Part shown: positions 9,943 to 60,122 of the stretch, piece by piece
How positions within the stretch are numbered: the stretch's first letter is position 1
Layout of the letters: each line of letters starts with the position of its first letter
Source of the DNA: a virus
Taxonomy: Duplodnaviria > Heunggongvirae > Uroviricota > Caudoviricetes
IMG/VR virus record: IMGVR_UViG_3300011339_000564
Span: 14,318-78,317 of that record
Reading direction: 5' to 3' (one strand)
Length of the DNA: 64,000 nt
Notes under the pieces: model-generated
Database searches by the model: none
Seen by the model: only the letters and a program-made list of their open reading frames with translations
What the model was told of the DNA's origin: nothing
Made by a program: the position numbers and the translations under genes

Positions 9943-9943
9943 A

Positions 9944-13804: not shown

Positions 13805-14245
13805 ATGTTATCAGATAATCTAAAAGTACTTTTAGCTAGTACACAAAGTTTTGCTATTAAAACACAAAACTTTCATTGGAATGTTGAGGGGAGTAATTTT
13901 CCACAGTATCATGCATTTTTTGATACGTTATACGGTGATGTAAGTGCTACTATCGATCCTATCGCTGAATATATCAGAATATTAGGTGCTTACACACCCG
14001 GCAGTTTACAACGTTATGCTGAACTAAGTATCATTCAAGACCAAATCAAAATCCCACGTGCTCAACTAATGTTTGCTGAATCACTACAAGATTGTGAAAA
14101 AATGAGTGAATTAGTCGTTGCTATGTTTGACGAAGCAACAAACGAACGTCAGCAAGGCATTGCTAATTACATGGCTGAACTACAAGACCTATACGGTAAG
14201 AAAGCATGGTTCATTCGTTCTACATTGAAAACAGAACGTGAGTAA
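13805..14245 (+). CDS. dps: Dps-family ferritin-like DNA-protection protein
   Basis: KTQNFHWNVEGSNFPQYHAFFDTLY...IDPIAEYIRILG matches the Dps signature (fHWnv.G..F...H..f...y...D.iAEri..lG). Confidence 0.8.
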   Translation: MLSDNLKVLLASTQSFAIKTQNFHWNVEGSNFPQYHAFFDTLYGDVSATIDPIAEYIRILGAYTPGSLQRYAELSIIQDQIKIPRAQLMFAESLQDCEKMSELVVAMFDEATNERQQGIANYMAELQDLYGKKAWFIRSTLKTERE

Positions 14246-20540: not shown

Positions 20541-20560
20541 TTGATTATTTGTGCTATAAT
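20532..20560 (+). promoter_or_regulatory. Extended -10 promoter (TGcTATAAT); leaderless transcript predicted
   Basis: TGCTATAAT at 20552-20560, a weak -35 TTTCAA at 20532-20537, and the ATG at 20567 six nt after the -10. Confidence 0.45.
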
Positions 20561-20566
20561 GCACAG

Positions 20567-21163
20567 ATGATTAAGATTACAGTTCCATTACCCAAACAAA
20601 TTACTGTTGCATGTAGCGGCGGTGTTGATAGTATGGCTGTAGTTGACTTTCTAAGTCGCAAACACGATGTAACTATTGCCCATTTTAATCATAGAACACA
20701 AAACGGTGAACGTGCCGCCCAATTTGTTTCTGGGTATTGTGGTGATAATAATATTCCTATGCTATACGGATCACCTCGCAGTGAACGCGGAACAAAAGAA
20801 TCAATGGAAGAATATTGGCGCAGAGAACGATATGAATTCCTAAGCGAATTAGGACCGGTCATCACTTGTCATCATCTGGATGACTGTGTTGAGACATATG
20901 TTTGGTCTAGTTTACATGGTACAGCCAAAGTTATCCCACTCACTCGCAAAAATGTATTGCGCCCATTTTTAACTACACGTAAGAGTGAATTTGTTCGATG
21001 GTGTGAACAACATAAAGTTCCTTGGATTGAGGACGAATCAAACAAAGATACCAAATACACAAGAAATTACATTCGCAACGAAATGATGCCACATATATTG
21101 AAAGTCAATCCGGGCATTCATACTTTGGTCAAGAAGATTGTAGAAGGTAAGCAAAATACTTGA
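20567..21163 (+). CDS. tilS: TilS-like PP-loop ATPase, catalytic domain only
   Basis: ACSGGVDSMAVV PP-loop, HFNH, RRERYEF, CHHLDDCVETYVW, LRPFL, WIEDESN..TKYTRNYIRNEMMP. Together these match the N-terminal domain of tRNA(Ile)-lysidine synthase. At 198 aa it lacks the C-terminal tRNA-binding domains. Confidence 0.7.
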   Translation: MIKITVPLPKQITVACSGGVDSMAVVDFLSRKHDVTIAHFNHRTQNGERAAQFVSGYCGDNNIPMLYGSPRSERGTKESMEEYWRRERYEFLSELGPVITCHHLDDCVETYVWSSLHGTAKVIPLTRKNVLRPFLTTRKSEFVRWCEQHKVPWIEDESNKDTKYTRNYIRNEMMPHILKVNPGIHTLVKKIVEGKQNT

Positions 21164-28177: not shown

Positions 28178-28384
28178 ATGGCAAAACCAACATTTCAAAC
28201 TAACCCACGTGTTCATCAAATATTTGAGGACTTGGAAAAGTATCTTGAATTCTGTCAAGAGTATGGATATAAGTATAATGAGGCAGACCTCTATGACCAA
28301 CGCAGTTATGTGTTTCGTCAGTTTGCAAAATGCATGACAGGTAAGCCTGCAAAAAATCAATGGACAGAACACTCACGTCCATGA
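28178..28384 (+). CDS. Hypothetical protein
   Basis: 68-aa ORF with ATGA overlap to the next gene. Confidence 0.5.
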   Translation: MAKPTFQTNPRVHQIFEDLEKYLEFCQEYGYKYNEADLYDQRSYVFRQFAKCMTGKPAKNQWTEHSRP

Positions 28385-29133
28385 AGATAGTATTAGTAAC
28401 TGGTGGATTTGATCCATTACACAGCGGTCATATTGAATATTTCAAAGCCGCAAAACAACTCGGTGTCAAGTTAGTTGTCGGGGTAAACAGTGATGCATGG
28501 TTGGCTCGTAAAAAGGGCCAACCTTTTATGCCTAGCATTGAGCGTATGTCAATAATTGAAAATTTAAAAATGGTAGATCATTGTGTTATCTTTAATGATG
28601 ATGATGGTTCTAGTATTGAAGCTATCAATAATGTAAAGATGATGTATCCTGATTCTGAAATCATCTTTGCTAATGGAGGGGATAGAACATCAGCCAACAT
28701 TCCAGAAATGATCTTTGATGATGTAGAATTTGTTTTTGGTGTAGGTGGCGAGAATAAAATGAACAGTAGTTCATGGATACTACGTGAATGGAAACAACCT
28801 AAAACATTGCGGCAATGGGGTTATTATCGTATACTACATGATGTGCCCGGGACTAAAGTAAAAGAACTAACAGTAGAATCTGGAAAGAGTTTGAGTTTAC
28901 AACGACACAAACATAGAGCAGAATACTGGCATGTATCAGAGGGAAGATGTGCAGTAGAACAAAGAATGCCTAATGGCTATCAACTACCTACTCTAGAATT
29001 AGATACACTAAGTCAAATAGTTATTCCTATGAATGATTGGCATAGGCTATACAATCCGTTTGATGTCCCATGTAGAATTATTGAAGTTCAATATGGTACT
29101 ATGTGCGAAGAAGAAGATATAGAACGCAAATGA
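28381..29133 (+). CDS. Bifunctional-looking HxGH nucleotidyl(cytidylyl/adenylyl)transferase with a C-terminal cupin (type II mannose-6-P isomerase-like)
   Basis: Start at the ATG at 28381 (ATGA overlap). VTGGFDPLHSGHIEYF. C-terminal WGYYRIL...VKELTVESGKSLSLQRHKHRAEYWHVSEG. Confidence 0.7.
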   Translation: MKIVLVTGGFDPLHSGHIEYFKAAKQLGVKLVVGVNSDAWLARKKGQPFMPSIERMSIIENLKMVDHCVIFNDDDGSSIEAINNVKMMYPDSEIIFANGGDRTSANIPEMIFDDVEFVFGVGGENKMNSSSWILREWKQPKTLRQWGYYRILHDVPGTKVKELTVESGKSLSLQRHKHRAEYWHVSEGRCAVEQRMPNGYQLPTLELDTLSQIVIPMNDWHRLYNPFDVPCRIIEVQYGTMCEEEDIERK

Positions 29134-29858
29134 ATCGTGCTATCTGTGCCCCGTGCGGTGGTTTAATGAATCATGTCAGATGGTTAACATTAATGTCATC
29201 TGAATTTAAACTTCCTTTTAAAGGTAAGTTAGAATTTATGAAGGGTGTTTACGCTACCAACAGATCGCCATTTGTATGGTTAAAAAATGAATATTTTTAT
29301 AGGGAACGACCTTTTATAAAGGATTTGGTATTTGGAACTCATCACATTGAAGACTGCCTAACATTAGAAAGTCCTAGAAAAATTTTAATATTGGTTCCTT
29401 CCCCTGAATTAAGTTTCACCCATTATTTAAAGTTTAATCCATCATTGAATGGATTATTAAAACTACGAATCAATCAGCCCTACCTTACAGTAGAAGATAT
29501 AAAAAATCTGTATTTGCTTGGCATTTCGGATCACAATTACCGTAATAAGTTGCATGATACCTCAACTAATGATATAATTACTTCAAATATTGATAAATTA
29601 TATACTAATAGAGAATTAGATGTGGACACGTATCGTACTATAACTGATTTTTTTGAGATATCAAATGAATACAACTTAGCAAATGAAGTTCACAATATGT
29701 GGTTTGATTTACAAGAACATGGTAAAAAATTAATGCTAACACTCTCAGAAAACGCAAAAGATGTAGAGAATTATTGGAGATTGAATCATATTGAAGCAAT
29801 CAACCAATCTGATTATAATATTGCACTTAAACTTATTAAAGAGACATACGGAGAATAA
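29130..29858 (+). CDS. Hypothetical protein
   Basis: Start at the ATG at 29130 (ATGA overlap). 242 aa with no motif recognised. Confidence 0.5.
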   Translation: MNRAICAPCGGLMNHVRWLTLMSSEFKLPFKGKLEFMKGVYATNRSPFVWLKNEYFYRERPFIKDLVFGTHHIEDCLTLESPRKILILVPSPELSFTHYLKFNPSLNGLLKLRINQPYLTVEDIKNLYLLGISDHNYRNKLHDTSTNDIITSNIDKLYTNRELDVDTYRTITDFFEISNEYNLANEVHNMWFDLQEHGKKLMLTLSENAKDVENYWRLNHIEAINQSDYNIALKLIKETYGE

Positions 29859-31058
29859 ATGAAAACATTATATTATATGGGACTAGAACCCTACAAAGCA
29901 CGTTACACTCTACAGTTACAAGAGTGGAATGAACGGGTCTTTAAACAACGTGGTATTAACTATGTCATTGTACCCGGTGAAACACTAACTAATGACCAAG
30001 CTATTGTAACTGGTCAAGTACTAGATGCACATGGTCGTACATACTTTGGTATGAGTCAACTTATGAATCTAGTTAAGATGATGAAGCAAGGTGAAGTAGG
30101 TGCAGGTGATATCGTATACTTTGAAGATATGTTTCAGCCGGGCATTGAGTCATTGCCATACATTATGAAACAGATTCCGATCACAAGTCGTCCTAAGATT
30201 TTTGTTCGCTGTTTAGCACAAAGTATTGACCCAGATGACTTTGTTCATGTCTGGGGTATGAGTGAATTCATGGGTCACTATGAGAAGATGGTTGATTCGT
30301 TTGTTGATGGTGTGCTTGCTAGTAACGAAGAAATGGTAATGCACATGAAGATTGCGGGTTGGAAAGCTCCTATCTATAATATATCAGGTCTAGCATTTGG
30401 TAAAGATGAAGTTCGTAGTCGTATTAATAATAATATTAAACCCTTTGATGAACGTAAAATGCGTATTGCTTTTAGTGCAAGATGGGACCAAGAGAAACAA
30501 CCTGACTTCTACATGGATGTGATTGAAGAATTCTTTAATCGGTATGGTGAGAAGGATCGTCACGGTATATATCGTGGTGTAGAATTTTGTGTATTCAGTG
30601 GTAGCAAATTAAAAAGCAATAACGATAGTTATATGAAACGCACACACGACTTTCAAGGTCGTGGATTGTTGACAGTTTATGAAGACTTGGACAAGAATGC
30701 ATATTATGAATTATTAAATGATACCAGAGTATTGTTTAATTGTGCATTACAAGATTGGGTAAGTAATACAGTTAGTGAAGCAGATAGTTTGGGTTGTAAT
30801 GTGTTGTATCCAGCATATCGCAGTTTTCCAGAAACGTTTGCAAACGACTATACAAGAATGTATGCGCCCTGGTCAGTTGAAGATGCGGCAATAAAGTTGT
30901 ATAATATGTTACATCAGCCACATATAAATCAAGGAAAGATTAGTGATTGGACTGATGGTACTATTGATAGAATCTGTGATATCTTAGAAGGTAAGGGACA
31001 ACAATGGTTGCGTATGGACAAAGATTATCGCAAACATACTAGAGAAAATAAATACTAA
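29859..31058 (+). CDS. Putative GT-B fold glycosyltransferase (tentative)
   Basis: 399 aa. C-terminal half RIAFSARWDQEKQPDFYMDV...SEADSLGCNVLYP is GT-B-like. Length and the N-terminal pattern (MKTLYYMGLE...) recall T4 alpha-glucosyltransferase, but this is unverified. Confidence 0.35.
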   Translation: MKTLYYMGLEPYKARYTLQLQEWNERVFKQRGINYVIVPGETLTNDQAIVTGQVLDAHGRTYFGMSQLMNLVKMMKQGEVGAGDIVYFEDMFQPGIESLPYIMKQIPITSRPKIFVRCLAQSIDPDDFVHVWGMSEFMGHYEKMVDSFVDGVLASNEEMVMHMKIAGWKAPIYNISGLAFGKDEVRSRINNNIKPFDERKMRIAFSARWDQEKQPDFYMDVIEEFFNRYGEKDRHGIYRGVEFCVFSGSKLKSNNDSYMKRTHDFQGRGLLTVYEDLDKNAYYELLNDTRVLFNCALQDWVSNTVSEADSLGCNVLYPAYRSFPETFANDYTRMYAPWSVEDAAIKLYNMLHQPHINQGKISDWTDGTIDRICDILEGKGQQWLRMDKDYRKHTRENKY

Positions 31059-31070
31059 AAGGAGAAAATT

Positions 31071-31760
31071 ATGTTTGAAACAACTTATACAGATAATGTA
31101 AATTACCGTTCTGCTAGCGAAATTAACTCAGCAATGGGCCGTGTTTATGGTCACATGAGTCTAGCTGTCATTGTATCAATGTTAGTTAGCTATTTTGTAG
31201 GCTCTAGTCCAGAGTTACTACAATTCTTTTTTACAGGTGTATTGAAATGGATTGTGATCTTTGCCCCATTAGCGGCAATATTTGGTGTTGCTATGGTCCT
31301 AGGTAACAACCCTAGTAAGGGCGTAGCACAACTATGTTTACATGGATTTGCCGCACTAATGGGATTAAGTTTTGCTACAATCTTTGCTGTATTCAACATG
31401 GGTAGTATTGTAAGCTCATTTATGGGAGCAGCCATATTGTTTGGCGTTATGAGTGGCTATGGTTATTTTACTAAACAAAGTTTAGACAGTCTTGGCAAGT
31501 TTATGTTTGTTGGATTGATTGCAATAGTTATTGCCAGCATTGTCAATATCTTTATCGGCAGTACCGTAATGCAAATGGTTATCAGTGCGTTGGCTATCAT
31601 TATCTTTTTAGGATTGACTGCTTACGACACACAAAAGATTCGTGAAGAATTAAGTCTAGAAACCAGTGATAGTGCAGAAGTACGCGGTGCATTAACATTG
31701 TACATGGACTTCATTAATTTGTTTATTAACCTCTTACAACTATTTGGTGATAGGAAATAA
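31071..31760 (+). CDS. BAX inhibitor-1/YccA family membrane protein
   Basis: MGRVYGHMSLAVIVSML N-terminal pattern, about 7 hydrophobic helices, and C-terminal LTLYMDFINLFINLLQLFG. Confidence 0.8.
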   Translation: MFETTYTDNVNYRSASEINSAMGRVYGHMSLAVIVSMLVSYFVGSSPELLQFFFTGVLKWIVIFAPLAAIFGVAMVLGNNPSKGVAQLCLHGFAALMGLSFATIFAVFNMGSIVSSFMGAAILFGVMSGYGYFTKQSLDSLGKFMFVGLIAIVIASIVNIFIGSTVMQMVISALAIIIFLGLTAYDTQKIREELSLETSDSAEVRGALTLYMDFINLFINLLQLFGDRK

Positions 31761-31762
31761 TC

Positions 31763-32179
31763 ATGGCAACATGGATATTAAAAACACTGCACAAAAAGAG
31801 TGCATATGAAAGACAGCATTGGTACAAAGATGGTAAAGAAATCATCCGTGAAGAAGGTTACCGTTGGGGCACATTTTACTGTGAAAGTGATGAGAAACCT
31901 GATATTGACCTAACTAATGATGATGGTTATGAAATTGGTCAAGATGAGTATGAGTGGGAGCTTGATAGCCTCGATGACGGTTGTTGGGCTGATTGGGAAT
32001 TCCCCGATGACATGAGTGAAGAAGAACAAGAAGAAATTCAAAATGCTTGGGATGAAAATTATTTTGAAGGCATGGAAGAATTAGGTTGGAGTTGCGATGA
32101 TACAGATTATATCTTGCAAGGTCCGTTAGAATTATCAGATGAAGATGGTAATGTAGTAGGTTCTGGTGATACAGAATAA
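31763..32179 (+). CDS. Highly acidic hypothetical protein (paralog of 32575-33060)
   Basis: Shared blocks with the paralog: L.KKS, YRWG, DWEF.DD..E.EQ.EI, and a Trp/Asp-rich C-terminus. Confidence 0.6.
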   Translation: MATWILKTLHKKSAYERQHWYKDGKEIIREEGYRWGTFYCESDEKPDIDLTNDDGYEIGQDEYEWELDSLDDGCWADWEFPDDMSEEEQEEIQNAWDENYFEGMEELGWSCDDTDYILQGPLELSDEDGNVVGSGDTE

Positions 32180-32202
32180 GTTCATTTCAAATAGGAGAAA
32201 AC

Positions 32203-32397
32203 ATGAGCGCACAAAATGATATCGAAACAAGTTTGGCAGCATACAACGCTGAAAACGATAAGTTTAACAAAGGAAATGCAGCCGCAGGTACACGTGCCCG
32301 CAAAGCATTAGCAGAACTAGCTAAAGCAGTTAAGGCTCGCCGTAACGAAATTACAGCAGAAAAAGCCGCACGTGCTGAAGCAAAGGTAAAGGCTTAA
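32203..32397 (+). CDS. Hc1-like histone H1-type DNA-binding protein
   Basis: KGNAAAGTRARKALAELAKAVKARRNEI parallels the chlamydial Hc1 N-terminal domain (KGNKAAAQRVRTESIKLEKIAKVYRKES). Basic Ala/Lys tail. Confidence 0.55.
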   Translation: MSAQNDIETSLAAYNAENDKFNKGNAAAGTRARKALAELAKAVKARRNEITAEKAARAEAKVKA

Positions 32398-32398
32398 T

Positions 32399-32572
32399 AT
32401 GACCTGCAGAGGCTATGATAGCAGGGCAATTAAATTGCCAAAAGAGATAAAATGCAGAGCGGCAACTATTTTAGATAATCATCAGCGAGGTGAATTTATA
32501 CGTAGTTGGGTAGCAATATATAAAGAGGCCGCACATTCAAGGGGCTCCAATAAAAAACATTCTAAGGATTAA
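32399..32572 (+). CDS. Small hypothetical protein (57 aa, below the track cutoff)
   Basis: The ATG at 32399 is 1 nt after the upstream stop. Translation MTCRGYDSRAIKLPKEIKCRAATILDNHQRGEF... The stop lies 2 nt before the next ATG. Confidence 0.4.
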   Translation: MTCRGYDSRAIKLPKEIKCRAATILDNHQRGEFIRSWVAIYKEAAHSRGSNKKHSKD

Positions 32573-32574
32573 TA

Positions 32575-33060
32575 ATGGCTAATGTCTACTGTATTAAACC
32601 ACTAGAGAAGAAAAGTATTAGCTGGCGGGTAGAAATGTACCGTGAGAATAGTGACGGATCTTTCAGTTGGTTTAATATGGAAGAATTATATCGTTGGGGT
32701 CAGGGTTTTATTGAAGAAGACCTTGATTGCAACCTGCCTTGGAAAGGTTCTAACTCTGCACATTGCAAAACAGATGCAGGTTGGGGATGTGAGTTTGAAG
32801 ATTCTATCAGTATTGACTGGGAATTTTCAGACGATATCACAGAATTGGAACAACAAGAAATTAAAGAATCATACTATGATGGTGGCGCGGCTTGGTTGTT
32901 TGACGGTGAACATGATTGGCAAACTGAAGATGATTATGTCATAGTCTTGGCGCCCTTTAGTGTTGACTATGCTAGTGACAACGGTGATATAATCACTGAG
33001 AACGTAGAATTAAAAGAACGTCCACCATTAGACCCAAATGCGGCATGGCCTTTTTCTTAA
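32575..33060 (+). CDS. Highly acidic hypothetical protein (paralog of 31763-32179)
   Basis: See 31763-32179. ISIDWEFSDDITELEQQEIKESYYDGG. Confidence 0.6.
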   Translation: MANVYCIKPLEKKSISWRVEMYRENSDGSFSWFNMEELYRWGQGFIEEDLDCNLPWKGSNSAHCKTDAGWGCEFEDSISIDWEFSDDITELEQQEIKESYYDGGAAWLFDGEHDWQTEDDYVIVLAPFSVDYASDNGDIITENVELKERPPLDPNAAWPFS

Positions 33061-33144
33061 ACAAACACACACTAAGATAAATAAAGATGTAACACAAAGG
33101 TTACAAAATTTCAAAACAAAAACCATCACAAAGGAAGGTTATCT

Positions 33145-33825
33145 ATGAGTTATAATAAAACAAAAACAGATCCAGAGTTGGGTCAACGAGTACACGAACA
33201 TCTAGTTAAGATGGGTGTTGAAACTCCCACTAATCCAAACAACTATGACCGTAAAGAAAAGATAGATCATATTGAAGCGCATTTTACACACATTATGCGT
33301 ATCTTGGGTCTTGACTTAACAGACGATAGTTTGATTGAAACCCCTAAGCGTGTTGCCAAGATGTATGTCAACGAAATCTTTTGGGGACTTGACTATGACG
33401 CATTCCCTAAATGTACAACAGTTGACAACAAGATGCAATACAACGAAATGGTTGTAGAGCGTAATGTTAACGTTCAATCTAACTGCGAACATCATTTTGT
33501 AGTCATCGATGGACTAGCTACTGTAGCTTATGTCCCTAAACAAAAAGTTCTAGGGCTTAGTAAGATAAACCGTATCGTAGAATATTTTAGCAAAAGGCCT
33601 CAAATCCAAGAGAGGTTAACAGAGCAAATTTTTCACACCTTACAGTTCATCCTTGAAACAGAAGATGTTGCAGTTATGATTGATGCACAACACTATTGTG
33701 TAAAATCACGTGGTGTAGAAGATACGGGATCTAGTACTGTTACTTGTCGTTTAGGTGGCGGTTTCAAATCAGATCCTGCGGCAAGACAAGAGTTTTTACA
33801 GATTGCTAACAAAGGTTGCAAATGA
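33145..33825 (+). CDS. folE: GTP cyclohydrolase I (FolE type 1)
   Basis: SNCEHHFVVIDG and RPQIQERLTEQI match the FolE active-site motifs. 226 aa. Confidence 0.9.
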   Translation: MSYNKTKTDPELGQRVHEHLVKMGVETPTNPNNYDRKEKIDHIEAHFTHIMRILGLDLTDDSLIETPKRVAKMYVNEIFWGLDYDAFPKCTTVDNKMQYNEMVVERNVNVQSNCEHHFVVIDGLATVAYVPKQKVLGLSKINRIVEYFSKRPQIQERLTEQIFHTLQFILETEDVAVMIDAQHYCVKSRGVEDTGSSTVTCRLGGGFKSDPAARQEFLQIANKGCK

Positions 33826-33953
33826 TTATTACAATATTAGTTACAATAGCAGTAATAATAGCTATTGTTATAATGATTGCTACGATGCCAAATGCTAGTA
33901 GATGTAACGGAGACTGCAATCAAGGTCGTAACTGTACTTGTAGGGAGCAATAA
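33822..33953 (+). CDS. Small membrane peptide with a Cys-rich tail (43 aa)
   Basis: ATGA overlap with the folE stop. Translation MIITILVTIAVIIAIVIMIATMPNASRCNGDCNQGRNCTCREQ. Confidence 0.4.
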   Translation: MIITILVTIAVIIAIVIMIATMPNASRCNGDCNQGRNCTCREQ

Positions 33954-34171
33954 TGGCACTGATATATAAAGAAGTAGAAGTTGATATTGATCTGAGCGAT
34001 TTTGATACTGACGAATTAGTTGAAGAATTGGAAAACCGTGGCTCAGGTGTTATGGACTACGATGACGGCAAGGAAGTACTACAGTCGATTTACGAAAAAC
34101 GTAGACTTGGACAAGACTATCAGCAAGAACTAGACCAATTAATTTGGTTAGGATTAGGGAGAGTTGTATGA
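33953..34171 (+). CDS. Hypothetical acidic protein
   Basis: 72-aa ORF, translationally coupled. Confidence 0.5.
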
Positions 34172-34362
34172 TGAAATTTAAATTAGGTGACATGGTTAAA
34201 AAAGTGTCTGGTTCACAATGGCATGGAAAAGTAGTTGGTACATACTCAACTGAGTTAACGCCTGAAGGATATGCAGTTGAGAGTCATACAGAAAAAGGTT
34301 CTGTACAAATATACCCTGCAAAGGCTCTTGAGTTATGGGAGTTGAATAATGGGATTTCGTAA
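34168..34362 (+). CDS. dfrB: Type II (R67/DfrB-like) dihydrofolate reductase
   Basis: Start at the ATG at 34168 (ATGA overlap). [52 protein letters not shown] aligns along its length with R67 DHFR ([52 protein letters not shown]), including the VQIY pore motif. Confidence 0.8.
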
Positions 34363-34585
34363 ACAAATGGACTACAATGCAGTACATCATCAAATCTATA
34401 TGAGTGGTGTAGAATTACATAGTAATTACAATGATGGTTACAATCAGTTTGAAATCAAAAAAGATTTACATCGTATCAAGTGGTTGTTAGATGAGATTAT
34501 GGCTGACAGCCCTACATTTGCAGGGGAAGACGAATTCTTAAAAGAACATGAACAAACTAAGATGTGGAGAACTCTTTCAAAATGA
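34349..34585 (+). CDS. Hypothetical protein
   Basis: 78-aa ORF, overlap-coupled on both sides. Confidence 0.5.
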
Positions 34586-35055
34586 TTTTCAATCACATTA
34601 AAAAACTCAAACAAGATGGAAAGAAGATAGGTATTACTTTTAGTACATTCGACCTACTTCACGCAGGTCATATTGCTATGTTAAGTGAAGCAAAAAATCA
34701 TTGTGATTATCTTATTTGTGGATTACAAACTGACCCCACGATTGATCGACCTGAAACAAAGAATAAACCCATTCAAAGTATCGTAGAACGACAGATTCAA
34801 CTTGCGGCTTGCCGCTATGTCGATGAAGTTGTTGTTTATCAAACTGAACAGGACCTTATTGACTTGTTACTTATTCTACCACTAGATGTTCGCATTTTGG
34901 GTGTAGAGTATGCAGATAAAGACTTTACCGGAAGATATGAAGGTAGTGAGCGTGGCATTGAAATTGTATTCAATGGTCGTGACCACAGTTTCAGCAGTAG
35001 TAGTTTACGAAAACGGGTAGCTGATGCCCAGATTATTAACGTTCTTAATAAATAA
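34582..35055 (+). CDS. HxGH cytidylyltransferase-family protein (TagD/RfaE-domain II-like)
   Basis: Start at the ATG at 34582 (ATGA overlap). GITFSTFDLLHAGHIAMLSEAK...YVDEVVVY. Confidence 0.7.
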   Translation: MIFNHIKKLKQDGKKIGITFSTFDLLHAGHIAMLSEAKNHCDYLICGLQTDPTIDRPETKNKPIQSIVERQIQLAACRYVDEVVVYQTEQDLIDLLLILPLDVRILGVEYADKDFTGRYEGSERGIEIVFNGRDHSFSSSSLRKRVADAQIINVLNK

Positions 35056-35083
35056 CTATAGCGGTCTTTGGACATCATCCCGC

Positions 35084-35112
35084 TTTACAAATTCTGCTGC
35101 CTATGCTATAAT
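35084..35112 (+). promoter_or_regulatory. sigma70-type promoter TTTACA-17-TGcTATAAT
   Basis: TTTACA at 35084-35089 and TATAAT at 35107-35112 with an extended TG. AGGAG RBS before the ATG at 35130. Confidence 0.55.
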
Positions 35113-35129
35113 CAACATAGGAGAAATTC

Positions 35130-35612
35130 ATGGCAAACAAAAAATTCTTTTCAACAAAGACATACAGACAAATAGGTCCTGTCGCTTATCGTCAATGGCG
35201 TGCTGACAGTCATTGTAACTTAATTCATGGCTATGCTATGAGTTTTCACTTTGAGTTTGAGGCTGATACGTTAGACGCACGTAACTGGGTAACTGACTTC
35301 GGTGGATTACGACCTCTCAAAGATAAACTAGAAGAATGGTTTGACCATACATTACTAGTTGCACAAGATGACCCAATGCGTGAACATCTATTAGAACTAG
35401 GTCGTTTAAAGCTAGCTAAAATTACAGAAGTAGAACGTACTGGGTGTGAAGGTATTTCTGACTTTTTATATGAATACATTAACACAATTTTTTTGCCTAA
35501 CTGCGGTAGTGAAGAAGCTAAACGTGTATGGTGCTGTAGAGTAGAAGTCCGCGAGACTGATAGTAACATGGCAGGACGTAGTGGTCATAGGGAAGATAGA
35601 GAGTTTGAATAA
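35130..35612 (+). CDS. queD: 6-carboxy-5,6,7,8-tetrahydropterin synthase (QueD/PTPS family)
   Basis: HCNLIHGYAMSFHFEFE, DFGGLRPLKDKLEEWFDHTLL and the small T-fold size (160 aa). Confidence 0.7.
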   Translation: MANKKFFSTKTYRQIGPVAYRQWRADSHCNLIHGYAMSFHFEFEADTLDARNWVTDFGGLRPLKDKLEEWFDHTLLVAQDDPMREHLLELGRLKLAKITEVERTGCEGISDFLYEYINTIFLPNCGSEEAKRVWCCRVEVRETDSNMAGRSGHREDREFE

Positions 35613-36235
35613 TGTTAGAAACAATTTGCGATACATTAGTTGAAGCATATAAACGCAACTGGATTACCAGTCGTGATGGCAATGTAAGTATTCGTCATCA
35701 TGATCGGGATCATTTTTACATCACACCCAGTGGTGTGCGTAAGCAGACAATGCAACCGGATCAGTTTAAGAAGATTCGTATTGTTGGTAGTATGTTATGG
35801 GAAGAGCAACCATACACTGATATCAGTGCTAATCTTAAACCGTCAGGTGAGCTACCACTACACCTCGGACTACAGCGAAAAATGGGACAGCACAATAATG
35901 ATGTTAGAGTAGTAGTACATTTACATCCCACATACTGTGTTGCCGCTATGCACCGCGGCATTGAGTTGAGTAGTCTGGCTAATGACTTTCCTGAACTCAG
36001 TCGCTATACTAGCGTGGCACCCAATGTGGGTGATGTGCCTCCTATTAGCCAGGAACTTGCAGACCGCTGTCATGAAAATTTGGGACTAGATAAGAATGGT
36101 ACTATTGCTTATGACATTGTAGGTATCAAAGGTCACGGTGTGGTCGCTATAGATACTAGCCCATGGAGGGCTTTTGAACATATTGAACGATTAGAACATA
36201 TTTGTCAAATCGTATTAGCATCAGGGAAATATTAA
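35612..36235 (+). CDS. Class II aldolase/adducin-domain protein (epimerase/aldolase/dehydratase family)
   Basis: SRDGNVSIRH, YITPSGV, and VVVHLHPTY metal-binding His motifs. Confidence 0.7.
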   Translation: MLETICDTLVEAYKRNWITSRDGNVSIRHHDRDHFYITPSGVRKQTMQPDQFKKIRIVGSMLWEEQPYTDISANLKPSGELPLHLGLQRKMGQHNNDVRVVVHLHPTYCVAAMHRGIELSSLANDFPELSRYTSVAPNVGDVPPISQELADRCHENLGLDKNGTIAYDIVGIKGHGVVAIDTSPWRAFEHIERLEHICQIVLASGKY

Positions 36236-36236
36236 A

Positions 36237-36650
36237 ATGTTAGACTGTATAATTATAGGTGATAGCATTGCAGTTGGTACAGCTATGGCTCGTCCAGAGT
36301 GTGTAAGTTATTCAAAAGGCGGCTGGAACAGTTGGCAATGGAACAAGGATTACTTAGCCAAAGCCTCTGCTCAACCTGCTCAAACTATAATCATTAGTCT
36401 TGGAGCCAACGACCACAAGGGTGTTAAGACTGAGCTTGAGTTACGTAAAATGCGAGAAGCAGTTAAGGGCCAGCGTGTGTTTTGGATCGATCCAGGTCAA
36501 GACCGTAAACCTATTCCACACGATGCAATTATTCGCATTGCTAAAGAATATGGTGATACAGTATTGCCTAGGCCAAAGAATCATATGAGTGCTGACGGAG
36601 TACATCCAACTGGTCGAGGTTATAAGATTTTAGGAGAGATGGCAAAATGA
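36237..36650 (+). CDS. SGNH/GDSL-family hydrolase
   Basis: IIIGDSIAVG (block I, GDS), SLGANDH (block III) and DGVHP (block V). Confidence 0.6.
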   Translation: MLDCIIIGDSIAVGTAMARPECVSYSKGGWNSWQWNKDYLAKASAQPAQTIIISLGANDHKGVKTELELRKMREAVKGQRVFWIDPGQDRKPIPHDAIIRIAKEYGDTVLPRPKNHMSADGVHPTGRGYKILGEMAK

Positions 36651-37282
36651 GTTATATTGTAGGATCATTACCTCCTATTAAGTGTTGGATAAAACGTGAA
36701 TTTCTTTACAACTTTGAAAAAGGTCACGGAGAATTAGAACCTGCCATATGGGTAAGTCTTAAAGCATTACGTGGACAAGTGTTTCGTATTGAATCATTAT
36801 TACCCAATTACGGAGCACTCTACGATAAACTGCCCATTCATGCCTATGTATGGCAAGACAACTACACAGGCAATCTACCTATAGATACTTTACAACTCTG
36901 GGACTGCATGGGTTATCGCTTTACTATCATTGAAAAAATAGGTTTACGTAATCTAGGTGTTAAGTTCTTGGGCAAAGATAAAGAATGGCATCACGGAACT
37001 TATTTATTTACAGTAGATTTTTGTGCTGATGGAATGGATGTAGATACAGGTTTTACTGAAGTAGCAGAAGAACACAAGTCGTTTAATTTTATTAGATTAG
37101 AAAATGGACAGTTTGCTTGTCAACCCAATAATCGATGTTTGTGGTACGACCAAAGTTTGATTTCAGGTACAGTGAAATTTCCAGACTTTAAAGCCGCACA
37201 GACCATATTTACAGTAGATGGTACTCGCAAGTGGAGTGCAGGAGATGATTGGTTTTATTCTATTGAGGAAAAAAATGAATAG
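36647..37282 (+). CDS. Hypothetical protein
   Basis: 211-aa ORF with ATGA coupling. Confidence 0.55.
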   Translation: MSYIVGSLPPIKCWIKREFLYNFEKGHGELEPAIWVSLKALRGQVFRIESLLPNYGALYDKLPIHAYVWQDNYTGNLPIDTLQLWDCMGYRFTIIEKIGLRNLGVKFLGKDKEWHHGTYLFTVDFCADGMDVDTGFTEVAEEHKSFNFIRLENGQFACQPNNRCLWYDQSLISGTVKFPDFKAAQTIFTVDGTRKWSAGDDWFYSIEEKNE

Positions 37283-37466
37283 TTTAGAAAAAATATGGGC
37301 TAGAGCAACTGGTCATTTAATGGGTAACACTGATGATGATAGACCCGATGTACCTATTCTTACTTTACGAGAAGCAAGAATTGCATTGTTCCTAAAAACT
37401 TTCTGGATTATACTACATGTGATAACATGTTGTTTCATCATAGCAAATACATTACGTCATTGGTAA
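37275..37466 (+). CDS. Small membrane protein
   Basis: Start at the ATG at 37275. C-terminal TM segment FLKTFWIILHVITCCFIIANTL. Confidence 0.45.
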   Translation: MNSLEKIWARATGHLMGNTDDDRPDVPILTLREARIALFLKTFWIILHVITCCFIIANTLRHW

Positions 37467-37469
37467 AAT

Positions 37470-37667
37470 ATGAACAAAAAAATTACAGAACTATGGGAAC
37501 AGGCCGCTCAACGAGATGACTTACTAGACGAAAAACGGTATGAGCATTTTGCTGAATTATTAATTAGAGATTGTGCAAAACAAGTTAATCATCTGGCTAA
37601 ACAAGGTGGCGGAACTTGGGGCGAAGTCATTCTAGAAAACTACAATATAAGTGTATATAAAAAATGA
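37470..37667 (+). CDS. Member of the small 'FAELIVREC' paralog family
   Basis: MNKKITELWEQAA...HFAELLIRDCAKQV. Divergent C-terminus. Confidence 0.55.
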   Translation: MNKKITELWEQAAQRDDLLDEKRYEHFAELLIRDCAKQVNHLAKQGGGTWGEVILENYNISVYKK

Positions 37668-38512
37668 GTCATTTAAAAGTATCAGAATTATTTTACAGTA
37701 TCCAGGGAGAAGGTCGCTATATGGGAGTGCCAAGTATTTTCCTAAGAACATATGGATGCAATTTTACATGCGGTGGCTTCGGTATGCCTAAGGGAGAAAT
37801 GAGTAATGAGAGAGATGTTATCGCAATTAAAGCAGAAGATTATACAGATTATAAATCCTTACCACTTGTCAGTACTGGATGTGATAGTTACGCATCTTGG
37901 GACCCTCGCTTTAAACATCTTAGTCCTGTTATCTCTACCGATTCTATTGCTGACAGTATTATGGATATACTTCCTCACAAGCGTTGGATGGATGAACATC
38001 TTGTTATTACAGGTGGTGAACCTTTGCTTGGATGGCAAAGAGCGTATCCAGACTTACTTTCAAACGAGAAAATGAGAGCATTGAAAGAGATTACATTTGA
38101 AACTAATGGCACACAAGAACTAAGTAAAGACCTTACTAACTATCTTCATCAATGGAAGATCAGCCGTGAAAATAACGCACTTACATTCAGTGTGAGTCCT
38201 AAACTTAGTATCAGCGGTGAGAAGTGGGAAGAAGCAATATGTCCACAAGTTGTTCGTCAATATGAAAGTGTTGGCTTTGTATATCTTAAATTTGTTATTG
38301 CTACTAAAGAAGATGCGATTGAGGCAGATAAAGCAGTTAAAGAATTTCGTACAGCTGGATTCAGAGGTCCAATATACTTCATGCCATGCGGTGGTGTAGA
38401 AAGTATCTATAATTTAAATGCTAGAAATGTTGCTATTGAAGCAATGAATCGTGGCTATCGCTATAGTGATAGATTACAGGTGCCTCTATTTAAAAATGAA
38501 TGGGGGACATAA
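37664..38512 (+). CDS. queE: 7-carboxy-7-deazaguanine synthase (QueE, radical SAM) with atypical Cys spacing
   Basis: ELFYSIQGEGRYMGVPSIFLRTYGCNFTC is the QueE N-terminal signature. The third Cys of CxxxCxxC is missing locally, and the next Cys (GCDSYASWDP) lies 36 residues later. VITGGEPLL. Confidence 0.75.
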   Translation: MSHLKVSELFYSIQGEGRYMGVPSIFLRTYGCNFTCGGFGMPKGEMSNERDVIAIKAEDYTDYKSLPLVSTGCDSYASWDPRFKHLSPVISTDSIADSIMDILPHKRWMDEHLVITGGEPLLGWQRAYPDLLSNEKMRALKEITFETNGTQELSKDLTNYLHQWKISRENNALTFSVSPKLSISGEKWEEAICPQVVRQYESVGFVYLKFVIATKEDAIEADKAVKEFRTAGFRGPIYFMPCGGVESIYNLNARNVAIEAMNRGYRYSDRLQVPLFKNEWGT

Positions 38513-38715
38513 TGACAGAAACAAAAAAACGCACAGTGGTAAGGATGCTTACCTATAGATTGACAGCATGGTTATTCACAATCTTTTGGACTTATCTGTT
38601 TACAGGTAATCTAGGTAACTCAGCCGGCTTTGCTACTGCATTACATATATTATTAAGTATAGACTATTACATTCACGAACGCATTTGGTTGAGAATCAAA
38701 TGGGGTAAGGAATAA
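38512..38715 (+). CDS. DUF2061-like small membrane protein
   Basis: Start at the ATG at 38512 (TAATG). MLTYRLTAW...TG...DYYIHERIW pattern. Confidence 0.45.
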   Translation: MTETKKRTVVRMLTYRLTAWLFTIFWTYLFTGNLGNSAGFATALHILLSIDYYIHERIWLRIKWGKE

Positions 38716-38716
38716 T

Positions 38717-38941
38717 ATGCCATTAGATCAAGTCCAATCATATGATTACTTTTATGACAAATTGATAGGTACTGAACTTAAGTTTACTTGGCTACCCCAA
38801 ACTTGTGACATATCAGGTAAGCGTATTTGGTTAAAGTATGGGTATAGGATGACTAGGATGATTACTGGACCGGGCACACCTGTCTTTGAGTATAGATGGC
38901 ACGATAAGAATACCCATATTATATGGAAACTAAAAAGGTGA
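38717..38941 (+). CDS. Hypothetical protein
   Basis: 74-aa ORF. Confidence 0.5.
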   Translation: MPLDQVQSYDYFYDKLIGTELKFTWLPQTCDISGKRIWLKYGYRMTRMITGPGTPVFEYRWHDKNTHIIWKLKR

Positions 38942-38945
38942 ATAT

Positions 38946-39125
38946 ATGTATGAATTAAGATATCTTGTCCGAAACGGTTGGGATGGACCTGAACAAGTGT
39001 TACAATATAGAACTCAACATGAAGTAACAGACTATAGTGGCACAGATCCTAAAACAGGTGGATTCATTAGAAAAATAGAATGGACTGAATGGAAGTATGT
39101 CCCCACCGTAGATGAAACAAAATGA
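38946..39125 (+). CDS. Small hypothetical protein (59 aa, below the track cutoff)
   Basis: MYELRYLVRNGWDGPEQVLQYRTQHE... The stop overlaps the ATG at 39122 (ATGA). Confidence 0.45.
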   Translation: MYELRYLVRNGWDGPEQVLQYRTQHEVTDYSGTDPKTGGFIRKIEWTEWKYVPTVDETK

Positions 39126-40471
39126 AATTATACGATAAACGAATTGCTTTTTTGATTAGTGACCAACATTTTATACCGCATGGTGGTATAGGTAGTTTTG
39201 CTAAAGGCTTTACTGAGATGTGTGGTCGTATCGGGTGGAAGGTTGATATTATATTAGACAAAGCACCTACTAATTTATTCAGTGATTTAATTATTAGTCT
39301 AGGTGCTAACATTGTTTACCCTGATGAACCACTACGATACAGTGACCATACTGCTACGTTTGCATTTAGCGATACTATCAACTTTGAAAAGATTATCAAC
39401 TTCCGTAAAGCAATATTAAAAGCATTTGAAACAAATGTATACGACATGATTGTGTGTAATACACAAGAGGCAATGACTGCTAGTTATGCCATGACGGTTA
39501 ACAAGTATATACCTGTTGTATTCTATACTCATTTGCACAGTATGATTTTTCGTGAAAGTCAAGGTAGTGATGTATTTTTAGACAGCTATCACAATTTCTA
39601 TAACAAACATATGGAGTTTACTGATATCATTATAGGCACACAAAGTCAAAAGAACATTGACGAACTAACTAAGTTTGGTGCAACTAACTGTCAGTTATTG
39701 CGTATGCCAATGAGTGAACGTGGTCTATTAGAACGATACAATGGATCTAAGAAGGGTGTACTATTCATTGGACGATGGGAAGAAGGTAAGAACCCTGAAG
39801 CATATATTCGTGTAATGAAAGAATGTAAATTACCATGTAAGGTAATGACAAATAGTAACGGTGCAAAAAAGTTTGAGAAGGCATTCAGTGACGCAGGTAT
39901 TACTGATTATGAAATCAAAGCCGGTATTACTGGACAAGAGAAAGTAGATTTTGTTCGTGGTGCTAATGTATTCTTTATGCCCAGCCTTCGTGAAAACTAT
40001 CCATTTGCATTTTTAGAATGTCTTGGTCATATGCCTTGTGTTGTGCTTGATAATCAAGATTGGTCAGACAACTTTGAGCGAGAATACTATCATCAAGTTT
40101 CAATTGGTTCAGCAGCCGACATGATTAAAACATTGTATGGCACAAATCAATTATCTTCAGTATTAGACTATGTGAAACAATTAGATGATGAGGTAGCTCA
40201 AGGTTGGATTACATTCTTAGATAATTTTGCAGGCAAGCGTAGCAACACAAATGCCGCAAAGATTAATACATATGATACAGTTAAGTATAGTGATTATATC
40301 AAGGATTTAAATCGTACACATTTAGCACGTGAGGACTTTGAAAGCGTACTCGCAAACAAATATAAGTTTTTAAATGTCTGCTACACAGATAGTGACACTT
40401 ACCTAAGCAAAGACCCAACATATAAACCAGTCGAGGAAGAAACAGCATTAAGTCTGTTTGAAGGATTATGA
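39122..40471 (+). CDS. GT-B (GT4-like) glycosyltransferase
   Basis: HGGIGSFAKG N-terminal motif, FIGRWEEGKNP, and RENYPFAFLECLGHMPCVV (the E-x7-E region). Confidence 0.7.
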   Translation: MKLYDKRIAFLISDQHFIPHGGIGSFAKGFTEMCGRIGWKVDIILDKAPTNLFSDLIISLGANIVYPDEPLRYSDHTATFAFSDTINFEKIINFRKAILKAFETNVYDMIVCNTQEAMTASYAMTVNKYIPVVFYTHLHSMIFRESQGSDVFLDSYHNFYNKHMEFTDIIIGTQSQKNIDELTKFGATNCQLLRMPMSERGLLERYNGSKKGVLFIGRWEEGKNPEAYIRVMKECKLPCKVMTNSNGAKKFEKAFSDAGITDYEIKAGITGQEKVDFVRGANVFFMPSLRENYPFAFLECLGHMPCVVLDNQDWSDNFEREYYHQVSIGSAADMIKTLYGTNQLSSVLDYVKQLDDEVAQGWITFLDNFAGKRSNTNAAKINTYDTVKYSDYIKDLNRTHLAREDFESVLANKYKFLNVCYTDSDTYLSKDPTYKPVEEETALSLFEGL

Positions 40472-41298
40472 AAAAAGTTTTAATTACAGGTAACTCAGGT
40501 TACATTGGCAGTCATCTAAGTAAGATGTTAATGGATACAATGAAATATGAAGTTCATGGATTAGATATCCGTGACCCGCAATATGCATTGAATAGATTTT
40601 ATCGTCAAGATATCAATAGACAATTTTCATTAGATGAAGAATTTGATGCAGTCATTCACTTAGCCGCATTAGTTAATGTAGGTGAAAGTGAACAGATACC
40701 CATTCAATATTATATCACTAACTTAAATGGCACAATGAATGTCATTAACAAAGTAAAGACTAAAAACTTTATATTTGCAAGTACGGGTGCCGCAGTTGGT
40801 TGCGAAAGTGCTTATGGTATCAGTAAACGTGCCGCAGAAGATGTAGTCAAAGAATACTGCACACATCACAATAAAAAAGATTATACTATCTTTAGATTTT
40901 ATAATGTGATTGGTACTACCGTTGTTCCACCTACAAATCCAGATGGATTAATGTATAACTTAATGAAAGCACGTGAAACAGGTGAGTTTACTATCTTCGG
41001 TAATGACTATGACGTTAGTGATGACGGTACATGTGTGCGTGATTATGTACATGTGAATGAAATTTGTGACTCATTAGCACAGGCTATCGAAAAGCCTAGT
41101 AACCAAATTGAATCATTGGGTCACGGAGTGGGATGGACAGTTAAAGAGATTGTCGATGAGTTTCAAAAAGTCAATCACGTTGACTTTGAAGTAAAATACG
41201 GCCCAAGAAGAAAGGGTGATCTTGCTAGTTCTGTACTAGAAGATGTTTCACCCTATATGCGTAATCTATATACTATGGATGAGTTGCTTAAGGTTTAA
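40468..41298 (+). CDS. NAD-dependent sugar epimerase/dehydratase (GalE-like SDR)
   Basis: VLITGNSGYIGSHL Rossmann motif and the YGISKRAAE catalytic YxxxK. Confidence 0.8.
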   Translation: MKKVLITGNSGYIGSHLSKMLMDTMKYEVHGLDIRDPQYALNRFYRQDINRQFSLDEEFDAVIHLAALVNVGESEQIPIQYYITNLNGTMNVINKVKTKNFIFASTGAAVGCESAYGISKRAAEDVVKEYCTHHNKKDYTIFRFYNVIGTTVVPPTNPDGLMYNLMKARETGEFTIFGNDYDVSDDGTCVRDYVHVNEICDSLAQAIEKPSNQIESLGHGVGWTVKEIVDEFQKVNHVDFEVKYGPRRKGDLASSVLEDVSPYMRNLYTMDELLKV

Positions 41299-42444: not shown

Positions 42445-42623
42445 TTCTTGCGACCCCTAAACCCTACTGGCATCTGCAAATCATTAACGGGAAACATTGC
42501 TTTGAACCACTCATCAGTACCAGGCTTAGCAGTAATTTTGCTACGGTCTATAGGCACAGAAGATGTAGGTTTTCCTCTATGGTCGGTAACTCCTGCAAGT
42601 CTTTTAAGTTGATCTATGTTCAT
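42441..42623 (-). CDS. Small hypothetical protein
   Basis: 60 aa, MNIDQLKRLAGV..., overlap-coupled within the minus-strand operon. Confidence 0.5.
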   Translation of the reverse strand: MNIDQLKRLAGVTDHRGKPTSSVPIDRSKITAKPGTDEWFKAMFPVNDLQMPVGFRGRKK

Positions 42624-43174
42624 AGACTCTTACCCCAGCGTGTGTTAATCACATTCCAGTTGATAATCTTCCACTGTTCAGCCAAATACTTTTTCTTATC
42701 AGCACCGTAGTCTAATATCCACGCATGTTCCCACCAATCAACTAATAACAATATATCATTGCGTACTTCATGGTTCTTAATTGTTTTAATTTTACCATCA
42801 GTTGCTAAATATACCCACCCACTACCTTGTATCTTCATTGCTTCAGTTTCAAACTGTGACTTCATATTATCGTATGAGCCAAAATGTTTGTTAATAAAGC
42901 CCATCATGGGGCCGTTTGGATTGTTTTTATTTCTTACTTCACGGAACTGAGGGAACAATGTATTATGTAAGAATGCACCTGCATAGTTAAATTCTTTATC
43001 TCCGATATCTTTGTTATATCTTTCAGCATAGCCATGTGCTAACTTGCCATAGTGTAAGTCTATAGTGTCTACCGACAAAACCGGACTTAGTTCTTTTGGC
43101 TCAAAATTAAGCTGAATGATTTCTATATCTTGAGGTTTTGACTTATCCTCAAGTAACTGAATTAAATCACGCAT
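42620..43174 (-). CDS. sodB: Fe/Mn superoxide dismutase
   Basis: DTIDLHYGKLAHGY, FLHNTLF, FGSYDNMKSQF, GSGWVYL, LLLVDWWEHAWILDY and INWNVI align with SodB blocks. All four metal ligands are present. Confidence 0.8.
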   Translation of the reverse strand: MRDLIQLLEDKSKPQDIEIIQLNFEPKELSPVLSVDTIDLHYGKLAHGYAERYNKDIGDKEFNYAGAFLHNTLFPQFREVRNKNNPNGPMMGFINKHFGSYDNMKSQFETEAMKIQGSGWVYLATDGKIKTIKNHEVRNDILLLVDWWEHAWILDYGADKKKYLAEQWKIINWNVINTRWGKSL

Positions 43175-59699: not shown

Positions 59700-60122
59700 A
59701 TGGGACTAGATATGTATGCTTATGTTGCCAGCAGAAAAGGTCAGTATGATGAATTCCATGAAAAGGCTGAATGGGATGAGACTATAAAAGATTTTACCTC
59801 TCCTATCAGTAAGCCATTGGAGATTGCTTATTGGCGTAAGCATCCTAACTTGCATGGTTGGATGGAACAACTATGGGAACGCAAAGGCAAACCCGGTGCA
59901 GGCCCTAAAGAAATATTCAATGGCATTGAATTGGAACTGACATGGGATGATTTGGATGAGCTTGAACGAGCTATTCTCCGTGGTCAACTCCCGGATACTC
60001 AAGGTTTCTTTTTTGGTAAACCAGCAGATAATCGTTATTATGAACAAGACCTAGAGTTTGTAGACAACGCTAAGGCGGAAGTGTTTTTGGGATTGAAAGT
60101 ATTTTACAACAGTAGTTGGTAA
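59700..60122 (+). CDS. Hypothetical protein
   Basis: Start at the ATG at 59700 behind GGTGGAGG (the track GTG at 59667 is less likely). Translation MGLDMYAYVASRKG...YWRKHPNLHGWM. Confidence 0.55.
   Translation: MGLDMYAYVASRKGQYDEFHEKAEWDETIKDFTSPISKPLEIAYWRKHPNLHGWMEQLWERKGKPGAGPKEIFNGIELELTWDDLDELERAILRGQLPDTQGFFFGKPADNRYYEQDLEFVDNAKAEVFLGLKVFYNSSW

Follow-up and report, generated by a model that had tools for sequence, protein, structure and literature searches.

What does an R67-type (DfrB) dihydrofolate reductase (DHFR) do for a phage, and does its place beside folE reveal the pathway that it serves? The present study takes up this question for a 64,000-nucleotide stretch of DNA from a tailed phage (Caudoviricetes; IMG/VR record IMGVR_UViG_3300011339_000564, positions 14,318 to 78,317), referred to throughout as the window, in which a small gene, here called dfrB (34168..34362, + strand), encodes a predicted minimal R67-type DHFR protomer of 64 residues, made up of an SH3-like core and a 9-residue tail. 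Patterns detected in the window and its relatives make it reasonably probable that dfrB is a genuine, selected minimal DfrB protomer and an optional auxiliary gene of a jumbo phage, likely topping up tetrahydrofolate.

The assignment to the R67 family, made from the letters of the sequence in a preliminary description of this locus, is confirmed. The dfrB product matched Pfam PF06442 (R67 DHFR) at E=4.4e-22 and 78.2 bits (cut-off 25) over profile positions 24-75 of 78, a phmmer search of the PDB returned R67 DHFR chains (1vie and others) at E=2.6e-17 over a single ungapped stretch of 52 residues, and tblastn with R67 gave 63.5% identity over 52 residues; the similarity, which the description had allowed might not survive a proper alignment, did so without gaps. 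Judged by these alignments, the likeness to R67 DHFR is far beyond chance. An AlphaFold2 monomer model, computed from an input alignment of 41 sequences (the window protein and 40 homologues, with R67 left out), had five strands and a mean pLDDT of 89.8, and its best seven Foldseek matches in the PDB were all R67 DHFR, 1vie among them (TM 0.81-0.94, rmsd 0.8 Å). The protomer is thereby modelled as a five-stranded SH3-like beta-barrel, and the family and fold matches together bear out the earlier statement that it is of DfrB type and unrelated to FolA.

W38 of R67 lies at the dimer-dimer interface, K32 and S65-V66-Q67-I68-Y69 are pore and active-site residues, and H62 is a pH-sensitive dimer-dimer contact. 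At an ungapped offset of 20, R67 K32, W38, Y46, T51, S59 and S65-V66-Q67-I68-Y69 are all kept in the dfrB product, and the ten-residue match and SVQIYP pore motif noticed earlier are both present. Across the 41 aligned sequences the corresponding window residues K12, W18 and S45-V46-Q47-I48-Y49, like the equivalents of Y46, T51 and S59, are invariant, except I48, which is kept in at least 90%. Substitutions from R67 to the window protein include W45 to T, K33 to V, Q39 to H, H62 to E and P63 to K, the equivalent of H62 being E42, which is nearly invariant in the clade, and the disordered N-terminal ~20 residues of R67 are absent. H62 is not essential to the DfrB family, because DfrB-H4 of Vibrio phage 1.030.O, which has the same change of H62 to E, still confers trimethoprim resistance; DfrB-H4 and its excised SH3 segment gave resistance up to 600 µg/ml, with MIC values of ≥600 µg/ml (PMC9835603). 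A survey published in 2025 (MBE; PMC12486381) gathered 386 DfrB homologues, 11% of them viral, covered 20 viral genomes and assayed 148 homologues. The VQIY motif was exclusive to its cluster I, which also holds the clinical DfrB enzymes, and both this cluster and cluster II were predicted, at high confidence, to form tetramers like that of DfrB1; clusters III-V showed no trimethoprim resistance, no predicted DfrB1-like tetramer and no VQIY (PMC12486381).

In all likelihood the window protein assembles into a tetramer with DHFR activity that trimethoprim does not inhibit. Four of the 64-residue SH3-like barrels would assemble into an R67-like homotetramer with a central pore lined by the equivalents of K32 and S65-V66-Q67-I68-Y69, in which NADPH and 7,8-dihydrofolate would lie side by side and hydride transfer would yield tetrahydrofolate, insensitive to trimethoprim. 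During infection this would most likely supply extra tetrahydrofolate for dTMP and purine synthesis, from a gene carried as a small cassette where the early/metabolic region is hypervariable.

That the gene is maintained is evident from its relatives. Identical copies of the 64-residue protein occur on at least 22 metagenome contigs, 576 protein clusters match it, all of them carrying PF06442, and relatives are encoded on 227 IMG/VR viral contigs. Stand-alone DfrB cores of 59-66 residues, which rank among the smallest known enzyme subunits, are abundant in viral metagenomes. Median pairwise dN/dS was 0.046 (64 distinct DNA versions, 376 pairs), with synonymous sites often saturated. Thus dfrB is a genuine gene under strong purifying selection, and the saturation of dS among its copies indicates long residence in phages.

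Such long residence does not fit well with an explanation that the history of the family might invite, namely that dfrB is antibiotic-resistance cargo, a mobile trimethoprim-resistance gene for transfer to, or the benefit of, the host. DfrB proteins first came to light through trimethoprim resistance borne on plasmids, freshwater viromes carry DfrB2-like ORFs (open reading frames), and screens for antibiotic-resistance genes flag such ORFs under that name (PMC7265639). The general DfrB profile, PF06442, was passed, but the window protein scored 87.8 bits against the NCBIfam model of clinical alleles (NF000331, trim_DfrB), for which the cut-off is 137, and by these profiles it is a member of the DfrB family and not a named resistance allele. 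Its GC content equals that of the phage (36.9% for dfrB, 37.2% for the window), neither the scanned window ORFs nor the genes called next to dfrB included an integron, transposase or integrase, and the gene is found in lytic-type jumbo genomes from environmental metagenomes. Taken together these observations render the cargo explanation very improbable.

The second part of the question concerns the neighbourhood. The gene begins with ATG at 34168, 4 nucleotides after a Shine-Dalgarno-like GGGAGAG read from the sequence (34157..34163, + strand), and ends with TAA at 34360-34362. Its start shares ATGA with the stop of an upstream 72-residue ORF and its 3′ end overlaps the next ORF, of 78 residues, by 14 nucleotides; with the Shine-Dalgarno-like site, these overlaps place dfrB in a densely packed co-directional array. 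GTP cyclohydrolase I, encoded by folE (33145..33825, + strand; PF01227, E=1.9e-61; 330 bits against the NCBIfam FolE equivalog cut-off of 202), lies ~340 nucleotides upstream on the same strand and forms the upstream border of a slot (33826-34348) that is occupied in the window by a 43-45-residue ORF (33816..33953, + strand) with an N-terminal hydrophobic stretch and a Cys-rich tail, CNGDCNQGRNCTC, by the 72-residue acidic ORF (33953..34171, + strand), for which Pfam and PHROG searches gave no match, and by dfrB. The downstream border is the conserved 78-residue ORF (34349..34585, + strand), to which no function was assigned and which is kept in 34 of the 90 related loci fetched first (fetched loci are numbered with an L, this first set being L001-L090).

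Comparison of relatives showed that the contents of this slot come and go. It is empty in two loci (L138 and L149), where the 78-residue ORF directly abuts folE, and holds a 62-residue ORF in three others (L128, L130, L157), the 43- and 72-residue ORFs without dfrB in L145, dfrB alone in L012, L054 and L170, the 43-residue ORF followed by dfrB in L143, and all three in the order 43, dfrB, 72 in L042, as against 43, 72, dfrB in the window, so that the 72-residue ORF may be present, absent or 3′ of dfrB. The folE-proximal slot is hypervariable and behaves like a shuffling hot spot for small ORFs. When a set anchored on QueE was assembled, 25 of its 33 complete folE-queD-queE clusters had no dfrB at all; in the remaining eight, dfrB followed folE in four and stood between queD and queE in the other four. 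The queD-dfrB-queE order, with ATGA and 14-nucleotide overlaps, occurs in L029, L033 and L022-type phages, dfrB being translationally coupled on both sides (L029). There is a third position in a sister clade (PolB ~61%), where dfrB follows a protein of 523-537 residues and precedes a conserved block of 171, 75-96 and 149 residues; 4.5-8 kb downstream lies a folE-like gene of another kind. Since most complete clusters lack it and its positions vary, dfrB is an optional cassette and not a fixed part of the cluster. Adjacency to folE is real and recurrent within one phage group, yet the cluster does not need dfrB, and the adjacency most likely reflects where small accessory ORFs are tolerated rather than a dedicated pterin or deazaguanine operon. 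The preliminary description was right that folE stands close upstream on the same strand, while its view of an operon with folE and deazaguanine genes does not hold for a unit that is so often complete without dfrB.

An alternative explanation could be that DfrB is a helper of the pterin pathway, its pore reducing a dihydropterin of the folE/queD/queE pathway, for example oxidised 6-carboxy-7,8-dihydropterin to CPH4 for QueE, in a manner analogous to the salvage of dihydrobiopterin by DHFR. This would explain why the gene stays in the island. In the scan anchored on dfrB, a QueD-like gene lay within 10 kb of dfrB in 38 of 46 clade loci (L011-L054, L063, L077), the remaining loci being mostly of the sister clade, with PolB and/or a folE-like gene only, or no marker gene, within reach; the same was true of all ten contigs with the exact protein. 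The occurrence of dfrB at several different positions inside the island, the coupled queD-dfrB-queE order, a 301-kb contig on which dfrB lies between folE and a PTPS/YhhQ-type (Vut_1) pair, and the small number of specific contacts that the R67 pore makes with its ligands would also fit. However, three quarters of the complete clusters (the 25 counted above) do without the gene, the slots that hold it also exchange unrelated small ORFs, and elsewhere dfrB is found in modules for nucleotide metabolism or replication that lack both folE and que genes. QueC and Tgt/DpdA were not found among the window ORFs scanned, where a remote DpdA could escape and the genome is incomplete, and tblastn with E. 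coli QueC and Tgt gave no match in 5.1 Mb of related loci. None of the literature searched links R67-type DHFR with QueD or with GTP cyclohydrolase/FolE. A role as pterin helper is accordingly improbable, and the earlier suggestion that the folE neighbourhood gives the fold its native pathway is not upheld for an optional cassette in a shuffled slot.

In other phages dfrB adjoins genes of nucleotide metabolism (dUTPase, dCTP deaminase and polymerase/RNR), in keeping with the role that we favour. On the 301-kb jumbo contig (ENA ERZ18638034 BUCK21-1 scaffold_5; L356, 10001-10640) the end of dfrB overlaps the start of a dUTPase gene, 3 kb after folE; folE there is flanked by GIY-YIG/NUMOD3 homing-endonuclease-like genes, and on the other side of dfrB stand PTPS and then a Vut_1/YhhQ-type queuosine-precursor transporter. 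On a phiKZ-like contig dfrB is 1.2 kb from dCTP deaminase, in a 45-kb podovirus (MW202697) it lies between DNA polymerase and RNR genes, and on other, smaller phage contigs it is found among small early genes. Some viral copies form a domain of larger proteins near DNA methylases. Examples of embedded domains resembling the published multi-domain DfrB-H3 and DfrB-H4 are a 214-residue protein with the DfrB domain in its middle (L061, 5359-6003) and a 345-residue protein with the domain N-terminal (L068, 5048-6085). Neighbour clustering of 36 unrelated viral dfrB loci revealed no recurrent metabolic partner.

Several observations weigh against a tetrahydrofolate-supplying enzyme and have to be set beside the evidence above. 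DfrB enzymes are poor catalysts. In the predicted tetramer subunit, R67 H62 and W45 are replaced by E and T. All dfrB copies of the jumbo super-clade lie within ~15 kb of folE and queD-like genes, and this confinement to the island, with the queD-dfrB-queE coupling in one lineage, could hint at a pterin-pathway role. Thymidylate synthesis provides the remaining difficulty. ThyA needs a DHFR; ThyX makes no dihydrofolate. Neither ThyA nor ThyX nor FolA was found on the source contig, which covers 77 kb of a genome that is probably >300 kb, and no locus, the first 90 included, had any of them within 10 kb of dfrB. PF00186 and PF00303 gave no match, either to the scanned window ORFs or to genes called on parts of the source contig, and tblastn was likewise negative, a weak match to E. 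coli FolA at 59802-60053 (E=0.7) having been dropped because its ORF had no Pfam match. The preliminary description had proposed looking for a FolA-type frd and a thymidylate synthase elsewhere in the genome; this could be answered for the fraction of the genome in hand, where neither was found, and in relatives, where ThyX occurs. Coverage was widened by walking 10 kb onward from a SprT-like anchor, by anchoring on QueE, on the ThyX of L179 and on the folE-like gene of the sister clade, and by extending contig 3300008267_010527 from a 78-nucleotide string. ThyX (PF02511) is encoded in the relative L179 at 10231-10899 and is very common in the sister clade (L194-L273), with >600 IMG/VR matches and 8000 protein clusters; the best 120 ThyX matches were all sister-clade proteins at least 84% identical. 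In that clade the gene often comes right after an Hc1 gene or ~8 kb after queE, and in the clade of the window Hc1 is followed by two small ORFs and then folE at the place where the sister clade has ThyX. ThyX was never on the same stretch as dfrB among the loci examined, and no FolA-type gene was found as a substitute for dfrB in dfrB-negative relatives. Because relatives in the super-clade commonly carry ThyX, a need for DHFR in a thymidylate cycle is conjectural and may be absent here. Binding rather than catalysis may, moreover, be what the DfrB fold natively does (PMC12486381).

This last possibility would make the protein a non-catalytic SH3-like binding module for a nucleotide (NADPH-like) or a protein, with reduction of dihydrofolate adventitious. 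The fold has been proposed to serve binding, ancestrally or natively (PMC12486381), many viral copies lie among small early genes without assigned function or are fused into larger proteins, and a thymidylate synthase partner was not found within 10 kb of dfrB. Such a module would not account for the strong purifying selection under which the pore residues K32 and S65-Y69 and the tetramer contact W38 stay unchanged, I68 in at least 90% of sequences, nor for the absence of the VQIY motif from the very clusters, III-V, that have neither resistance nor a predicted tetramer. We consider a purely binding role unlikely, if deserving of more weight than a fringe idea, and prefer the reading of dfrB as an optional cassette encoding a DHFR that would supplement tetrahydrofolate.

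Much of the setting for that reading is already published. Phage DfrB homologues, their activity and a proposed role in dTMP synthesis were reported in 2023 and 2025, so the earlier proposal of phages as a reservoir of dfrB-type genes is correct and not new (PMC9835603, PMC12486381, PMC7265639), and 26 phage records in GenBank have DfrB homologues, many of them annotated as R67 or dihydrofolate reductase. Two phage homologues were tested by Lemay-St-Denis et al. in 2023 (PMC9835603), and catalytic viral DfrBs were later proposed to replace FolA in ThyA-bearing phages, cluster II copies adjoining ThyA (PMC12486381). The viral proteins of the 2025 survey resemble the window protein in being encoded by Caudoviricetes, in their predicted tetramers and in a proposed DHFR role in genomes without FolA, but the argument made for them rests on ThyA within 20 kb, whereas the window group has no ThyA within 10 kb and has relatives with ThyX. 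Neither folE and queuosine genes, nor the folE/queD/queE neighbourhood, nor jumbo phages and the present lineage of them come up in that survey (PMC12486381).

Among characterized proteins, R67 DHFR/DfrB1 (PDB 1vie, 2rk1) shares with the window protein the Pfam family, the ungapped 52-residue core at 63.5% identity, the SH3-like barrel and the pore residues; the window gene differs in being phage-chromosomal with native GC and not borne on an integron or plasmid, and in lacking the disordered N-terminus. DfrB-H4 (NVP1030O_25) is likewise phage-encoded, is 71% identical to the window protein in the core, and has the pair H62 to E and P63 to K and the ten-residue segment in common with it. Both DfrB-H4 (218 residues) and DfrB-H3 of Pseudomonas phage PS-1 (167 residues) are multi-domain proteins of ~46-49-kb phages near DNA methylases, in contrast to the window protein, a 64-residue core that stands alone and belongs to a jumbo phage. 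Of the annotated phage records the closest, at 78% identity, is ‘R67 dihydrofolate reductase’ of Caudoviricetes sp. ctOsX528 (MW202697, Manatee Spring), likewise a stand-alone small ORF, but this is the 45-kb podovirus described above, in which DNA polymerase fragments flank the gene, RNR is close by, and folE and que genes are absent. The FolA-type Frd of T4, encoded with Td, has the reaction presumed for the window protein and follows the same rationale, a DHFR that the phage itself encodes. T4 Frd has a fold unrelated to DfrB, is monomeric and has a trimethoprim-type active site; compared with frd-td of T4, the 77-kb source contig has no FolA-type gene and no td.

The genes downstream of the slot complete the picture of the island. 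Gene order in the window is folE, the 43- and 72-residue ORFs, dfrB, the 78-residue ORF, an RfaE-like nucleotidyltransferase, a QueD-like protein, a class II aldolase, GDSL, ORFs of 211 and 65 residues, and a QueE-like protein. The nucleotidyltransferase (34564..35055, + strand; PF01467, phrog_7878) is RfaE-domain-II-like with a cytidylyltransferase-like fold, its match to TIGR02199 being below the cut-off. The QueD-like gene (35130..35612, + strand) encodes a divergent PTPS-family protein (PF01242; phrog_2389, E=2e-41; TIGR03367 at 33 bits against a cut-off of 89) with no PDB relative by sequence; it has CNLIHGY where the alignment places CGRLHGH of E. coli QueD, so that Tyr stands at the position of His33, which we take to be a Zn ligand, and by eye, without an alignment tool, another Tyr may stand at the place of the first Zn-ligand His. 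Relatives include a second QueD-like type, ~57% identical. The QueE-like radical-SAM protein (37664..38512, + strand) matches phrog_2076 at E=5e-53 but scores ~48 bits with the NCBIfam QueE models, far below their cut-offs. Because QueD and QueE fall below the NCBIfam cut-offs, Tyr replaces His33, and QueC and DpdA were not found, the label ‘deazaguanine’ is, as far as these comparisons go, only partly secure for the cluster; a PP-loop protein at 20549 is TilS-like. Throughout 28360-41298, sugar-nucleotide genes alternate with folE and the queD- and queE-like genes (mannose-1-P guanylyltransferase/cupin, RfaE-like adenylyltransferase, class II aldolase, a 449-residue glycosyltransferase-like protein and NAD epimerase), to which relatives add DegT aminotransferase, UDP-glucose dehydrogenase and carbamoyltransferase. 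It is possible that this island makes an unusual deazapurine or glycosylated DNA modification, or a glycan. Promoter and terminator scans around dfrB gave site counts equal to the shuffle background, with a sole notable site 5′ of queD. This best sigma-70-like match of the region (35084-35112; TTTACA, a 17-nucleotide spacer and TATAAT with a TG extension, 11/12) lies just upstream of the QueD-like gene, which may therefore be transcribed separately from the folE-dfrB-nucleotidyltransferase stretch.

The window occupies positions 295-64294 of JGI contig Ga0153702_1008, which is 77,134 nucleotides long. At the nucleotide level, none of 50,697 phage records is related to the phage. Its PolB shares 49% identity with Sinorhizobium phage Phosso, 46% with Agrobacterium phage Atu_ph07 and 44% with Rak2-like phages, and related IMG/VR contigs reach 352, 367 and 525 kb. 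The 367-kb contig (IMGVR_UViG_3300023174_002543) is dfrB-positive; those of 352 kb (IMGVR_UViG_3300046787_000200) and 525 kb (IMGVR_UViG_3300027749_002876) are dfrB-negative. Because the nearest PolB proteins are those of jumbo phages and related contigs are so long, the source is assigned, on these comparisons, to an uncultured jumbo phage lineage. The preliminary description had compared the locus with T4-like phages; the PolB identities of 44-49% to jumbo phages do not sustain a T4-like frame, and a KVP40/T4-like identity was ruled out by the lack of a nucleotide match, a FolE only 64% identical to that of KVP40, and PolB. The 1317-residue ORF at 9842-13795 resembles T4-like cyanophage proteins only in its C-terminal ~140-175 residues, which are 47-55% identical to hypothetical proteins of P-SSM2, S-SM1 and Syn30. 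There is also a host-like proteostasis and stress gene set made up of DnaJ, ClpB-like AAA+, ClpX, ClpS, HSP20, ferritin-like, Fe/Mn SOD, a Bax-inhibitor-1 membrane protein (Bax1-I), an Hc1 histone-like protein, the TilS-like protein and ribosomal protein S21. These genes span 858-3919, 13805-14245, 20549-21163, 31071-31760, 32203-32397 and 42620-43174 of the window and 17365-19713 of L100, a content typical of giant phages.

The implications differ with the substrate. There is a slim chance that in the freshwater-type jumbo super-clade DfrB has a native non-folate substrate and re-reduces an oxidised dihydropterin, for example 6-carboxy-7,8-dihydropterin to CPH4. If so, an oxygen-sensitive deazapurine pathway could continue in aerobic hosts even though the phage, using ThyX, has no need of DHFR for thymidylate, and this would be the first physiological context outside folate for the ‘orphan’ DfrB fold. 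For dfrB as a phage auxiliary gene, the present data extend the known range of DfrB to very large uncultured phages, and the fully conserved pore and strong purifying selection support what has been published, namely that dfrB-type genes have long had a natural home in environmental phages, unrelated to trimethoprim use.

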